Below, piece by piece: positions 5,105 through 7,136 of a DNA stretch of 35,279 bases. The first letter of the stretch is position 1. Each line of letters opens with the position of its first letter. The DNA is taken from assembly GCA_016196465.1 (NCBI GenBank), contig JACPXR010000051.1, positions 1 to 35,279 on the forward strand, in the 5' to 3' direction. The translations under genes and the position numbers were made by a program. Below the pieces are notes generated by a model. The model was not told the origin of the DNA and searched no databases. It saw nothing but the letters and a program-made list of their open reading frames with translations. Origin of the DNA: Candidatus Omnitrophota bacterium (lineage in GTDB: Bacteria > Omnitrophota > Gorgyraeia > 1-14-0-20-64-10).

Positions 5105-6151
5105 ATGCCGGAACTCCGCAAAGATCCTCTGATGGGACGGTGGGTGATCATCTCCACCGAACGGGCCAAGCGACCGGACGAATTTCTGCCGCTGGCGCCG
5201 GTTCTCCCCGAGACAGAGCCGGATTGCCCCTTCTGTGAGGGAAACGAATCCAAAACCCCTCCGGAGATCATGGCGGTCCGTCCGGCGGGTTTGGCGCCCA
5301 ACAGCAGGGGATGGAAGGTCCGGGTGGTCCCCTCCATTGCTCCCGTCCTGCGCATTGAAGGGAAGATGGAGCGCCGTCCCCAGGGGATCTACGACGTCGC
5401 TTCGGGAATCGGGGCCCACGAGGTGATCGTCGAAACCCCTCAGCACCTCCCCTCCCTCTCCCATCTCACCCAGGAACAGATCCAGCAGGTGCTCGAGGTG
5501 ACCCTTCACCGGATGACCGATCTGGAAAAGGACCAGCGGTTCAAAAGCGTCCTCCTGTTCAAGAACGTCGGTGAGAACGCCGGATCGGGCAAAACCCAGC
5601 ATGCCCGCGCTCAGCTCATCGCCCTTCCGGTGATCCCCGTCCGCCTGAAGGATGAGCTCCACGGCGCGAACCAGTATTTCCAGCTGAAGGAGCGGTGCAT
5701 CTTCTGCGACATTCTCCGGCAAGAGCTCGACGCCCAGCAGCGCCTCGCGGTGGAGACCTCGCACTTCGTCGCCCTGGCCCCCTTCGCTTCCCGTTTTCCC
5801 TTCGAGCTGTGGATCCTCCCCAAGGGGCACGCCGCCGACTTCACAAAGATGACGCCCCACGAGAAAGGGGACCTCGCAAGGATCCTTCAGTGGACCTTCT
5901 TAAAGCTCTCCCGCGTCCTCAAGGATCCTCCGTACAACACGATCCTTCACACCGCCCCCTACCGCCGCGCCAAGGCGGGGGCGTGGCGCACGATCGACCA
6001 GGATTTTCATTGGCACCTGGAGATCATGCCCCGGCTGACCCGGGTGGCCGGGTTCGAATGGGGAAGCGGCTTCTACATCAACCCGACCCCTCCTGAGGAG
6101 GCGGCCAAATTCATGAAGGAGGCGGGGGTCCCCGTGATGAGTCGTGGCTGA
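5105..6151 (+). CDS. GalT-family (HIT-like) nucleotidyltransferase, copy 1; catalytic His replaced (HAR instead of HPH)
   Basis: MPELRKDP..GRWVIISTERAKRP, CPFC, GAHEVIVE, CIFCD and AGFEWGSG are present. The active-site motif reads QHARAQ. Confidence 0.88.
   Translation: MPELRKDPLMGRWVIISTERAKRPDEFLPLAPVLPETEPDCPFCEGNESKTPPEIMAVRPAGLAPNSRGWKVRVVPSIAPVLRIEGKMERRPQGIYDVASGIGAHEVIVETPQHLPSLSHLTQEQIQQVLEVTLHRMTDLEKDQRFKSVLLFKNVGENAGSGKTQHARAQLIALPVIPVRLKDELHGANQYFQLKERCIFCDILRQELDAQQRLAVETSHFVALAPFASRFPFELWILPKGHAADFTKMTPHEKGDLARILQWTFLKLSRVLKDPPYNTILHTAPYRRAKAGAWRTIDQDFHWHLEIMPRLTRVAGFEWGSGFYINPTPPEEAAKFMKEAGVPVMSRG
6017..6081 (+). repeat. 65-bp perfect direct repeat, copy 1 (copy 2 at 7026-7090)
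   Basis: ctggagatcatgccccggctgacccgggtggccgggttcgaatggggaagcggcttctacatcaa is identical in both galT paralogues. Confidence 0.95.
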
Positions 6152-7136
6152 AATCCGGAAGGATCCCATCTCCGGACGTTCGATCATCGTCTCCACAGAT
6201 GGCCCGATGGGGCCCGCGGATTTCGATCTGGAACCCCACCAGATCCCCCCCGGGCCGTGTCCCTTCTGCCCAGGGAACGAGGCGATGACCCCGCCGGAAA
6301 TCGCGGCGAGGCGCCAGGCCGGAAGCGCTCCCAACGGTTCCGGATGGAGGATGAGGGTCATCCCCAACAAATTCCCAGCCCTCCGGGTGGAAGGGAACCT
6401 CAACCGGACCGGCGTGGGAATCTACGACATGATGAACGGAATCGGCGCCCACGAGGTGATCATCGAGACCCCCGACCACCACAAGGCCCTGGCCGATTTT
6501 CAGCCCCCCGAGATGGAGGAGCTCCTTGAAGTCTACCGGGAACGCTCCCTGGATTTGAGGAAGGACCAGCGCTTCCGGTATCTTCTCATCTTCAAGAACT
6601 TCGGCGAGTCGGCGGGGGCCTCCCTCGCTCACCCCCACTCCCAGCTCATCGCGCTTCCCGTGGTCCCCAAACGGGTGACCGAGGAGCTGACCCGCTCCGA
6701 GGAGTACTTCGAGCGGAAGGACCGGTGCGTCTTCTGCGATCTCATTCGTCAGGAGACGGAGGAGAAAGGCCGCATCGTGCTGGAGTCGGAGGGGATGCTG
6801 GCCTTCGCGCCGTTTGTCTCCAGGTTTCCCTTCGAGATGTGGGTGATCCCGAAGGAACACAGCGGCGATTTCGTGGCAAGCCCTCCCGAGCTTCTGTCGG
6901 ACCTGGCGAAGACCCTGCCGCAACTGCTGGGGAAGATGCGGCGGGTGCTCCACAACCCCTCTTACAACTTCATCCTCCACACATCTCCTCTTGAAGCGGC
7001 CCCCTGGGCGGGGTATCATTGGCATCTGGAGATCATGCCCCGGCTGACCCGGGTGGCCGGGTTCGAATGGGGAAGCGGCTTCTACATCAATCCCACCCCC
7101 CCAGAATTGGCTGCAAGCTTTTTACGCGGAGACTGA
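6144..7136 (+). CDS. galT: GalT-family nucleotidyltransferase, copy 2 (Gal-1-P uridylyltransferase / ADP-glucose phosphorylase-like); HPH intact, RxxRP lost
   Basis: GTG start overlapping the copy 1 stop. [28 protein letters not shown] and AGFEWGSG are present. Confidence 0.88.
7026..7090 (+). repeat. 65-bp perfect direct repeat, copy 2
   Basis: Identical to 6017-6081. Confidence 0.95.

Follow-up and report, generated by a model that had tools for sequence, protein, structure and literature searches.

Two adjacent genes in the genome of a Candidatus Omnitrophota bacterium encode proteins of the galactose-1-phosphate uridylyltransferase (GalT) family, and each has lost active-site residues that the other keeps. 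This raises the question of whether the two copies, here c1 and c2, are separate proteins or contribute complementary parts to one active site. The window is the whole stretch analysed, 35,279 nucleotides of contig JACPXR010000051.1. An initial annotation of it proposed a heterodimer in which c2 supplies the nucleophilic histidine and c1 the substrate-binding arginines.

The gene pair and its genomic setting

c1 and c2 are tandem class-I GalT / ADP-glucose-phosphorylase-like genes of this Omnitrophota genome (Table 1). Both proteins contain the N- and C-terminal GalP_UDP_transf domains of Pfam (PF01087 and PF02744) above the gathering cut-offs, have the class-I GalT architecture of two tandem HIT-like half-domains, and are 51% identical to each other across 342 columns. 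Both pass TIGR00209 (113.8 and 108.1 bits, cut-off 102.1), and neither window protein reaches the stricter NF008724 cut-off of 448 (125 and 123). They are full length and overlap, as the initial annotation described. The GTG is the earliest possible start of c2 because of an in-frame TGA at 6138-6140, and the N-termini of c2 orthologues read M-A/S-E-[IL]-R.

Table 1. Positions of the gene pair, its motifs and neighbouring genes in the window
Feature	Position	Strand	Remark
SD-like TAGGAG	5094..5099	+	5 nt ahead of c1 ATG; read from sequence
c1 (P0001), predicted GalT-like non-nucleophile 'arm-donor' subunit	5105..6151	+	348 aa; ATG start
c1 arm, R20-A-K-R23-P (RAKRP, R20-P24)	5162..5176	+	arm arginines kept; equals E. 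coli R28/R31 by alignment
c1 V-P-S77-I-A-P	5327..5344	+	degenerate nucleotide-binding PN(K)FP, Asn to Ser; alignment
c1 G160-S-G162-K163-T-Q-H166-A-R168-A-Q170	5582..5614	+	altered catalytic segment; alignment; HARAQ (H166-Q170) at 5600-5614
c1-specific 7-9-residue insertion (TAPYRRAKAGAWRTIDQDF)	5951..6007	+	ahead of HWH motif; orthologue segment lengths
Near-identical DNA tract, copy 1	6007..6105	+	matches 7016-7114, 91% overall
c1 C-terminal loop	6032..6082	+	equals E. coli 311-323 region covering the partner's sugar site
c1/c2 overlap	6144..6151	+	8 nt; c1 stop TGA 6149-6151, c2 GTG 6144-6146
c2 (P0002), predicted GalT-like catalytic subunit	6144..7136	+	330 aa; GTG start
c2 arm, G20-P-M-G23-P (GPMGP, G20-P24)	6201..6215	+	degenerate, both arginines gone; alignment
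c2 P-N75-K-F-P-A-L	6363..6383	+	intact nucleotide-binding motif; alignment
c2 G158-A-S160-L-A-H163-P-H165-S-Q167	6615..6644	+	intact catalytic segment; alignment; HPHSQ (H163-Q167) at 6630-6644
Near-identical DNA tract, copy 2	7016..7114	+	matches 6007-6105
c2 C-terminal loop	7041..7091	+	decays only in fused proteins
gap (GAPDH)	7142..8149	+	starts 5 nt past c2 stop
pgk	about 8154-9347		after gap
tpiA	9344-10138		after pgk
glgC (ADP-glucose pyrophosphorylase)	12944..14185	+	451 bits, cut-off 424.9

The stop codon of fmt lies at 5073, upstream of c1, and the pair would be co-translated from a single operon, fmt-c1-c2-gap-pgk-tpiA. Terminator and promoter counts in the window are no higher than in shuffles, so the operon boundaries are not based on such predictions. 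A promoter-like site at 12903-12932 belongs to glgC, which is on the same strand as the pair. The glgA gene is present in the genome (83% complete), in which no galK scores above the cut-off. Some members of the family occur as fusions with glycogen synthase GT5 or with GH57. No RNA datasets containing the stretch are listed; it is present in four DNA runs, all from a single groundwater-metagenome study.

The best solved relative of c2 is At5g18200 of Arabidopsis thaliana (1z84; E 2.7e-66, residues 3-328 aligned), whose database entry name is GalT-like protein. This closest solved relative and the link to ADP-glucose and alpha-glucan place the pair with the ADP-glucose phosphorylases as a matter of resemblance and context, not activity. 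At5g18200 reportedly has ADP-glucose phosphorylase activity (ADP-glucose + Pi -> Glc-1-P + ADP) and is said to be a homodimer. By analogy with it, the pair probably uses ADP-glucose and phosphate and does not carry out the UDP-hexose exchange of the Leloir pathway.

The two copies of the near-identical tract, compared by eye, differ by a single base within their first 75 nt, and identical codons number 24/27 inside the tract against 78/140 in the remaining gene. Judged from its sequence, the tract records a short gene conversion that covers the C-terminal loop. Gene conversion as the general cause of the conservation of the c2 loop was rejected; it is clear only in the window and in one other pair (L010, 26/26 identical codons), not in most pairs.

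Reciprocal losses in the active sites

Residue equivalences were taken from alignment to E. coli GalT, with N77 placed by an L-INS-i alignment and c2-based columns, and counts refer to 120 c1-type and 120 c2-type hits. Residues R20/R23 of c1 correspond to R28/R31 of E. coli, and both R168 of c1 and H165 of c2 correspond to H166. The initial annotation had read c1 as keeping the arm arginines with an arginine at the nucleophile, and c2 as having an intact HPHSQ with both arm arginines changed to glycine; motif coordinates and alignment agree with this for both copies.

The arm arginines of c1 are present in 120/120 and 119/120 orthologues singly, and together in 119/120. No c2 orthologue (0/120) has both, and position 31 is glycine in 72/120. 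The degenerate arm of c2 still has conserved prolines (P21 in 96/120, P24 in 113/120).

The residues that act in cis show the opposite distribution. In c2 the nucleotide-binding motif is almost invariant (N and A in 120/120 each, K in 119, F in 118), and so is the catalytic segment, with the alpha-phosphate Ser/Thr, the zinc-ligand His and the nucleophile His each in 120/120 and the Gln in 119/120. The equivalent of N77 in c1 is Ser in 113 orthologues, Ala in 6 and Asn in 1 of 120. The catalytic segment of c1 has the alpha-phosphate Ser changed to Gly, an inserted basic residue, the zinc-ligand His kept and the nucleophile His changed to Arg. Among c1 orthologues the S161 equivalent is Gly in 105/120, and the H166 equivalent is Arg in 103, His in 14, and Leu, Cys and Lys in 1 each. 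The initial annotation noticed a one-residue insertion upstream of the c1 motif, and the orthologues confirm it: at this place 2 residues are found in 117/120 of the c1 type, against 1 in 120/120 of the c2 type.

The structural zinc residues C, C, H and H are present in 120/120 c1 orthologues; in c2 each Cys is present in 117/120 (with 3 gaps) and each His in 120/120. The zinc ligands of E. coli GalT are the CxxC pair, H115 and the first His of HxH. The third position is taken by the His of 'TPxH' (H114 in c1, H112 in c2), which aligns with H115 of E. coli and H133 of At5g18200. Since both histidines are invariant in c1 and c2, the zinc site is retained in both copies, as first described, while the 'HEV' histidine named as a ligand was probably misassigned.

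The copies also differ in the segment before HWH, which is 19-21 residues long in 120/120 c1 and 12-14 in 120/120 c2 orthologues; R287, G292, W294, I297 and D300 are conserved in this segment of c1. The AGFEWGxGFY of the c1 C-terminal loop is invariant, and the loop is equally invariant in c2 and c1.

Thus, c1 is a GalT family member by fold and, by its motifs, a predicted pseudoenzyme, because the nucleophile His of H-x-H-x-Q is replaced (R168). The extent of this decay varies, since 14/120 c1 orthologues keep the nucleophile His (13/14 of these lack the Ser and 14/14 the Asn), and c1 of one genus (g44) retains both Asn and Ser. The His-bearing c1 lineages include L010, L014 and L015. The reciprocal-loss pattern is far beyond chance because it recurs in 120 + 120 orthologues.

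Pairs, single genes and fusions among relatives

An adjacent pair, c1 followed by c2, is present in 24/40 relatives, in addition to the genome studied here, and throughout the class it is flanked by fmt and gap. Among the 24 paired loci of relatives, gap follows c2 in 22 and fmt precedes c1 in 15. The initial annotation allowed that the substitutions might be private to this assembly and under relaxed selection; they are conserved across the class, and dN/dS is 0.03-0.08 in both copies. The NG86 values from four genomes of one genus are 0.027-0.050 for c1 and 0.037-0.080 for c2, and there is strong purifying selection on both. The identity of c1 across the class is 48-74%, its conservation at least matches that of c2 in most genomes, and its branches in the tree are no longer than those of c2. 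The c1 of the window falls inside the c1 clade (22 rows, SH-aLRT 99), and its c2 falls inside the c2 clade with a moderate support of 81 in this quick tree. Strict co-occurrence, reciprocal loss and selection on both copies are among the marks of an obligate enzyme/pseudoenzyme paralogue heteromer, and these three are found here.

All nine single-copy relatives examined (L030, L031, L036, L040 and L041-L045) have both the R-x-x-[RK]-P arm and H-x-H-x-Q. A lone c2-type gene or a lone dead c1 was not found among the relatives examined. Two of the nine, L036 and L040, combine a c1-type arm (HMM 71.7 vs 53.1) and a c2-type body in one gene. In the tree this body nests inside the c2 clade, where it groups with the c2 of L035 and the C-halves of natural fusions (support 99).

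Three diverged natural c1-c2 fusions are known from this survey (P0242, P0392 and P0393; 596-599 aa; 52-56% identical). In the N-half, ERAKRP is still present together with a canonical C-terminal loop, but the CPFC knuckle is gone, and with it the entire cis site. The C-half begins at CPFC, has no arm, and keeps PNKFPAL, GAS and HxHTQ, with its own C-terminal loop decaying. The P0242 cluster has 1 member on 1 contig of 23,525 nt (source ncbi); a search of genome contigs found no locus for this fusion gene, and among the loci read from a phylum-wide search with P0242, all were separate genes. Full-length fusions of about 680 aa, suggested by open frames of 674-777 aa, were rejected for the loci read: in L035 and L021, c1 and c2 share a reading frame but a stop codon separates them. 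P0257 (871 aa) was likewise rejected as a c1-c2 fusion, as it is a tandem of canonical modules, two in number, that both possess an arm and an HxH. The complete singletons, the fusions with only the predicted parts and the chimeric single genes are internal controls provided by evolution.

A probable single composite site and the alternatives

The best explanation is that c1 and c2 are the subunits of a class-I GalT-family nucleotidyltransferase or phosphorylase that is an obligate heterodimer, has a single composite active site and probably uses ADP-glucose, and we hold this reading to be likely. It is built on the observed residue pattern, conservation, synteny, purifying selection, fusions and singleton pattern; physical association of the two chains, inactivity of either homodimer and the identity of the substrate are inferred. 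In this family, each active site draws on two chains. The cis chain gives the nucleotide-binding Asn, the alpha-phosphate Ser, the zinc-bound His and the nucleophile His-x-Gln. The partner gives, in trans, its C-terminal loop and the R-x-x-R of its N-terminal arm, which binds the hexose-1-phosphate or beta-phosphate. The original gene would have duplicated in tandem early in the Omnitrophota class; c2 would then have lost the trans arginines, and c1 the cis residues, with Asn replaced by Ser, Ser by Gly plus an inserted Lys/Arg, and the nucleophile His by Arg. Because of these losses, the site of c2 cis and c1 trans would be complete on both sides, and the site of c1 cis and c2 trans dismantled on both.

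The trans role of the arm arginines was established outside this subfamily, for the E. coli and human enzymes, and would apply here by analogy. The initial annotation had the RxxR arginines bind substrate phosphate from the partner subunit, and published GALT work agrees (PMC5081055 and PMC8513031). In the former, R28/R31 of E. coli GalT are listed with the residues that contact the Glc-1-P moiety of UDP-Glc; the latter, an MD study of GALT, describes intersubunit Arg48A-Phe99B H-bonds and Asp98A-Arg51B salt bridges. For the E. coli and human enzymes, PMC5081055 and bioRxiv 10.64898/2026.09.13.751320 assign His-Pro-His-x-Gln, Asn153 and Ser161 to the cis chain, and Arg28/Arg31 and the 311-323 loop to the partner.

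Modelling the complex of c1 with c2, as initially proposed, gave ipSAE values of 0.78, 0.75 and 0.78, against 0.00 for the best of 3 controls, and passed a mark that is reached by 58/80 solved complexes and 2/110 mismatched pairs. At least 95% of contacts agree between runs, partner pLDDT is at least 86, and the predicted interface is GalT-like, formed by N-arms 1-17 and C-terminal loops (residues 313-325 of chain 1). This pass may reflect only likeness to, or memory of, solved GalT homodimers, with c1+c2 as the sole pairing modelled. Neither R20/R23 of c1 nor N75-F77 of c2 is among the confidently touching residues listed for the model, and a search of the top contact pairs for complementarity favouring a heterodimer found residues alike in both copies, which are uninformative.

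The C-terminal loop of c2 would be expected to decay under the simplest one-site model, and it is invariant instead. It may be kept for the interface, by gene conversion, or through binding at the second site. In a refinement of the best explanation, the heterodimer is active and the second site (c1 cis and c2 trans) would have been rebuilt as a pocket that takes up phosphate or a sugar phosphate and, as an allosteric or regulatory element, tunes the live site. Everything that favours the best explanation applies here as well; in addition, the c1 pseudo-site has conserved basic residues, the invariant c2 loop would cover the pocket, and the operon ties the pair to lower glycolysis. Against this, such a pocket is deduced throughout, and the fusions delete the whole c1 cis half while the c2 loop decays, so the pocket would be dispensable in at least the fusion lineage. 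We regard the refinement as possible but doubtful.

A comparably tentative proposal is ratchet-like constructive evolution, from a two-site homodimer to an obligate one-site heterodimer, with the second site rebuilt as an arginine-lined phosphate or sugar-phosphate sensor that would couple ADP-glucose and glycogen turnover to the gap-pgk-tpiA operon. The proposed pocket would be lined by K163, R168 and the basic residue before H166 of c1, beneath the c2 C-terminal loop. The ratchet would then have been partly undone twice in the same clade, by gene fusion and by grafting of the c1 arm on a c2 body.

It is also conceivable, though quite improbable, that c2 is a self-sufficient homodimer without arm arginines, and c1 a separate co-expressed non-catalytic paralogue, such as a ligand-binding or regulatory homodimer with an Arg-rich anion pocket. 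The conserved prolines in the degenerate arm of c2 are consistent with this, and so are the conserved features specific to c1 (the inserted K/R, the R/K/Q ahead of the first His, R168 and the long insertion in 120/120), which suggest a gained function rather than a mere scaffold. However, c1 keeps R-x-x-R almost without exception even though, by its residues, no nucleotide could be used at the c1 cis site, and the arginines are present in every singleton. The fusions hold exactly the c1 arm and C-terminal loop beside the c2 catalytic core, L036 and L040 return a c1 arm to a c2 body, and c2-type genes do not occur alone in the relatives examined. Loss of a nucleophile normally marks a dead enzyme, but the idea that c1 is a decaying duplicate, or the pattern an assembly artefact, was rejected as having almost no probability, given a full-length c1 with its class-wide identity and low dN/dS, and 120 c1 orthologues from many sources.

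Compared with known systems, At5g18200 (1z84, 1zwj, 2h39) shares the two-half-domain fold family, the CxxC zinc knuckle, the arginine arm (ARAKRP in At5g18200) and HxHSQ with the window pair, but has the arginine arm and the nucleophile on one polypeptide, whereas the pair has them on separate polypeptides. GalT is the textbook case of a homodimer with composite sites, and heterodimers of mutant alleles underlie dominant-negative effects in galactosemia. Known GALT 'heterodimers' are such allele mixtures, as with dominant-negative Q188R, and do not combine paralogues. The Leloir UDP-glucose:galactose-1-phosphate uridylyltransferases of E. coli and humans, with two composite sites per homodimer, resemble the pair in composite-site residues and in the TIGR00209 match; they differ from it in that the window proteins stay below the NF008724 cut-off and the genome has no galK above cut-off. 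Heterodimeric ABC exporters are head-to-tail dimers in which a consensus ATP site is paired with a second site that is degenerate on both contributing halves, and they are unrelated to the GalT pair in fold and chemistry. Trypanosomatid deoxyhypusine synthase (PMC3663545) and AdoMetDC/prozyme (PMC5201418) are cases in which an impaired and an inactive paralogue form an active complex, with both required. They are eukaryotic and of other folds, and resemble the pair in the logic of enzyme and dead paralogue.

The mixed-pair arrangement is apparently not yet described for the GalT family. If true, the GalT/HIT family would gain its first heterodimeric member, as far as the searched literature goes, and the pair would be an unusually clean case of complementary degeneration following duplication. 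As the residues are defined, the idea is directly testable with a handful of constructs. Both genes are at present annotated as 'galactose-1-phosphate uridylyltransferase' or 'DUF4921/DUF4931', and this annotation would be corrected: by its motifs, c1 would be unable to form the covalent intermediate, and ADP-glucose is the probable substrate of the pair.

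The tandem GalT-like genes

The two GalT-like genes, c1 (348 aa, arm arginines kept) and c2 (330 aa, nucleophilic His kept), overlap by 8 nt and are 51% identical. Both match the Pfam GalT N- and C-terminal domains and pass NCBIfam TIGR00209, and neither reaches the cut-off of the stricter NCBIfam NF008724. Their fold and motifs place both proteins in the HIT superfamily, in its class-I GalT branch. Of its catalytic features, c2 has all but the arm arginines, whereas c1 has the arginines and lacks the nucleophile.

Features of the window.
Feature	Positions	Strand	Remark
priA-like gene, def and fmt	1293-5073	same as c1	tightly packed against c1; priA-like helicase is a 764-aa ORF; priA and def named by reading translations, not by family search
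def	3610-4122	same as c1	named from translation alone
fmt	4123-5073	same as c1	directly upstream of c1
c1	5105-6151	same as c2	GalT-like gene
c1 insertion	5951-6007		c1 aa 283-301; absent in c2; consensus roughly F-R-R-x-K-x-G-Y-W-x-T-I-D
c1 loop tract	6007-6105		over C-terminal loop
c2	6144-7136	same as c1	GalT-like gene
c2 loop tract	7016-7114		over C-terminal loop
glgC	12944-14185		passes its family cut-off

All motif coordinates of the initial annotation were right when the sequence was re-read. In the alignment with E. coli GalT, R28/R31 correspond to R20/R23 of c1 and G20/G23 of c2, and H164/H166/Q168 to H166/R168/Q170 of c1 and H163/H165/Q167 of c2. This upholds the two substitutions first proposed, Arg for the nucleophile in c1 (R168; His in c2, H165) and Gly for both arm arginines in c2. 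The zinc ligands were also said to be kept in both copies, which holds, but the His of HEV is probably not among them. The third ligand is most likely the TPxH His (c1 H114, c2 H112; E. coli H115, At5g18200 H133). As the TPxH and HEV His are each conserved, the zinc site is kept in c1 and c2 either way.

Reciprocal losses across orthologues

Residue tables were compiled from the best 120 c1-type and best 120 c2-type matches, whose source names place the organism in Candidatus Omnitrophota. Both arm positions are Arg in 119/120 c1 and 0/120 c2. In P-N-K-F-P, c2 keeps the nucleotide-binding Asn (aligned with E. coli N77) in 120/120, and the c1 equivalent is Ser (113), Ala (6) or Asn (1). At the alpha-phosphate Ser (E. 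coli S161), c2 has Ser or Thr in 120/120 and c1 has Gly in 105/120. The one-residue insertion noticed upstream of the c1 catalytic motif recurs after this position in 117/120 c1, mostly as Arg or Lys. At the nucleophile position, c2 has His in 120/120 and c1 has Arg (103), His (14), or Leu, Cys and Lys (1 each). Both copies share the zinc ligands, N153, G159, Q168, and a C-terminal loop reading AGFEWGxGFY. The reciprocal loss is confirmed, and the losses reach beyond the two motifs originally described.

According to these tables, a site made of c2 cis residues (Asn, Ser, Zn-bound His, nucleophile) and c1 trans elements (arm arginines and C-terminal loop from the partner chain) is intact on both sides. 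The site of c1 cis and c2 trans elements is dismantled on both sides, save for the c2 C-terminal loop. The decay of c1 is uneven: besides the 14 orthologues with His, c1 of one genus, g44, keeps Asn and Ser. At four loci in relatives' genomes (L010, L014, L015, L026), c1 has H-x-H, lacks the Asn and mostly lacks the Ser. The first three group together as a small clade within Arg-type c1, and their H-x-H could be a reversion or a retained ancestral state. A 7-9-residue insertion before HWH is found only in c1-type sequences (120/120) among the paired copies. L041 and L042, which are canonical singletons, have it too, and it may therefore predate the decay of c1. The basic residues of the c1 pocket and this insertion may point to a new function of c1.

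The c2 C-terminal loop is invariant, even though it would lie over a dead site. This may reflect an interface need, homogenisation by gene conversion, or a ligand still bound at the second site. In the window, the two loop tracts are 91% identical in DNA, with 24/27 identical codons versus 78/140 elsewhere in the gene, a pattern that points to recent gene conversion between the paralogues. The L010 tract has 26/26 identical codons, and most other pairs have no such tract.

Among 40 relatives' genomes searched, 24 have c1 adjoining c2, with c1 first, as does the window's own genome. In paired loci the two genes lie -8 to about +120 nt apart, the gene after c2 being gap in 22/24 and the one before c1 being fmt in 15/24. 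The reciprocal substitutions are thus found in related genomes, in these pairs and in the orthologue tables. A wider sample added 300 genomes from the phylum; counting the window's own, 169/301 have a match at E<=1e-30, with at least two matches in most genomes of the same class and mostly one in other classes. Identity to the window copies is 48-74% for c1 and 51-72% for c2, and c1 is as well conserved as c2. The initial annotation had named relaxed selection as counter-evidence; NG86 dN/dS across four genomes from one genus of the same class is low for both copies (c1 0.027-0.050, c2 0.037-0.080). The constraint on the "dead" c1 is at least equal to that on c2.

Interface and reaction

The c1+c2 complex, the only pairing modelled (alignments of 60 and 63 rows), gives ipSAE values of 0.78, 0.75, and 0.78, with 0.00 for the best of three controls; the ipSAE mark is reached by 58/80 solved complexes and 2/110 mismatched pairs. 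Contacts agree by at least 95% between runs, and partner pLDDT is at least 86. The modelled interface is of the GalT type: it is built from the N-terminal arms (residues 1-17) and from C-terminal loops that cover the FKN...G-x-S stretch of the partner chain. The proposed complex thus passes with a GalT-like interface, but c1 R20/R23 are absent from the list of confidently touching residues. Because GalT homodimers are already solved, the pass indicates likeness and is not proof of binding, and it is neutral on any preference for the heterodimer over the homodimers.

Among proteins of solved structure, At5g18200 (E 2.7e-66), which is reported to be an ADP-glucose phosphorylase, comes closest to c2; archaeal, E. 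coli, and human GalT rank lower. An exhaustive search found GalT-like modules fused to glycogen/starch synthase GT5 (proteins P0298, P0369) or GH57 (P0275, P0359), which ties the family to alpha-glucan metabolism. The window's genome (83% complete) contains glgA and has no galK match above the cut-off, and gap, pgk, and tpiA are conserved neighbours of the pair. On these grounds, together with glgC, ADP-glucose/phosphate chemistry sending Glc-1-P towards glycolysis is favoured, with about an even chance of being correct. The heterodimer argument is independent of the substrate assignment.

The proposed c1:c2 arrangement would work in the manner of known heteromers of an enzyme and a dead paralogue, for example trypanosomatid deoxyhypusine synthase (PMC3663545), and of those ABC exporters that are heterodimers with a single degenerate site. 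According to McCorvie et al. (2016; PMC5081055), K334-Q346 of one chain and, from the other, Q188 and N173 make up the Glc-1-P site, and R28, R31, G159, and S161 of E. coli GalT contact the Glc-1-P part of UDP-Glc. An MD study (PMC8513031) describes stable intersubunit Arg48A-Phe99B hydrogen bonds and Asp98A-Arg51B salt bridges, with Arg48 and Arg51 as the main binders of Glc-1-P. A 2026 preprint (10.64898/2026.09.13.751320) assigns cis roles to S161, H164, H166, and Q168 and a trans role to the 312-317 loop. The initial annotation's statement that the RxxR arginines bind substrate phosphate from the partner therefore holds for the GALT enzymes of E. coli and human (PMC5081055, PMC8513031). 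By analogy, this role would carry over to the At5g18200-like subfamily. No paralogous GalT or HIT-family heterodimer, nor this Omnitrophota pair, was found in full-text literature covering few subscription journals.

Fused and apparently re-unified forms

In 9/9 single-copy relatives (L030, L031, L036, L040, L041-L045; L028, at a contig edge, was left out), the arm reads R-x-x-[RK]-P, and H-x-H-x-Q is present together with P-N-K-[FY]-P or N-K-F. Neither a lone arginine-less c2 nor a lone His-less c1 occurs among the loci read. An exhaustive profile-free search with c1 gave 7874 matches at E<=1e-3, and the top match, P0242 (599 aa), is a natural c1-c2 fusion. P0392 (596 aa, 56% identical) and P0393 (599 aa, 52% identical) are further fusion homologues. 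All three are metagenomic proteins, and no genomic locus was found for them.

In all three, the c1-derived N-half keeps MSELRK...AVERAKRPNDF and the canonical C-terminal loop AGFEWGTGxYINP, and the CPFC knuckle and whole cis site are gone. After a linker of about 15-20 residues, the c2-derived C-half begins at CPFC without the arm, keeps PNKFPAL, GAS, and HxHTQ, and has a decayed C-terminal loop (GFEWSTGSY, GFERETEIY, GFELATGSY). As read from these motifs, the parts kept and lost are exactly those that a heterodimer with a single working site, c2 cis plus c1 trans, would call needed and dispensable. Several independent comparative lines back the reading of c1 and c2 as a heterodimeric split GalT-like enzyme, which is considered likely.

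Two other candidates for fusion were rejected. P0257 (871 aa) is a tandem of another kind than the c1-c2 fusions: after a 140-residue low-complexity N-terminal stretch come two canonical GalT-like modules, both complete and both carrying an arm and HxHSQ of their own. Values of "open_frame_aa" of about 675-777 at many c2 matches do not denote fused genes; in L035 and L021 a stop codon lies between the two same-frame genes.

A quick IQ-TREE of 67 rows recovers a c1 clade (22 rows, support 99) and a c2 clade (26 rows, moderate support 81), and does not settle the three fusion N-halves, which form a long branch. L036 (G282:C24) and L040 (G161:C1) belong to one family of the class. Each encodes one protein whose first ~38 residues are c1-type (HMM 71.7 and 72.2 bits, as opposed to 53.1 and 52.4 when scored against the c2 arm) and whose body falls within the c2 clade, grouped with L035_c2 and the C-halves of the fusions (SH-aLRT 99). 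This looks as if a c2 body had acquired the arm of c1, a secondary re-unification of the split enzyme, which would give back an enzyme capable of forming homodimers.
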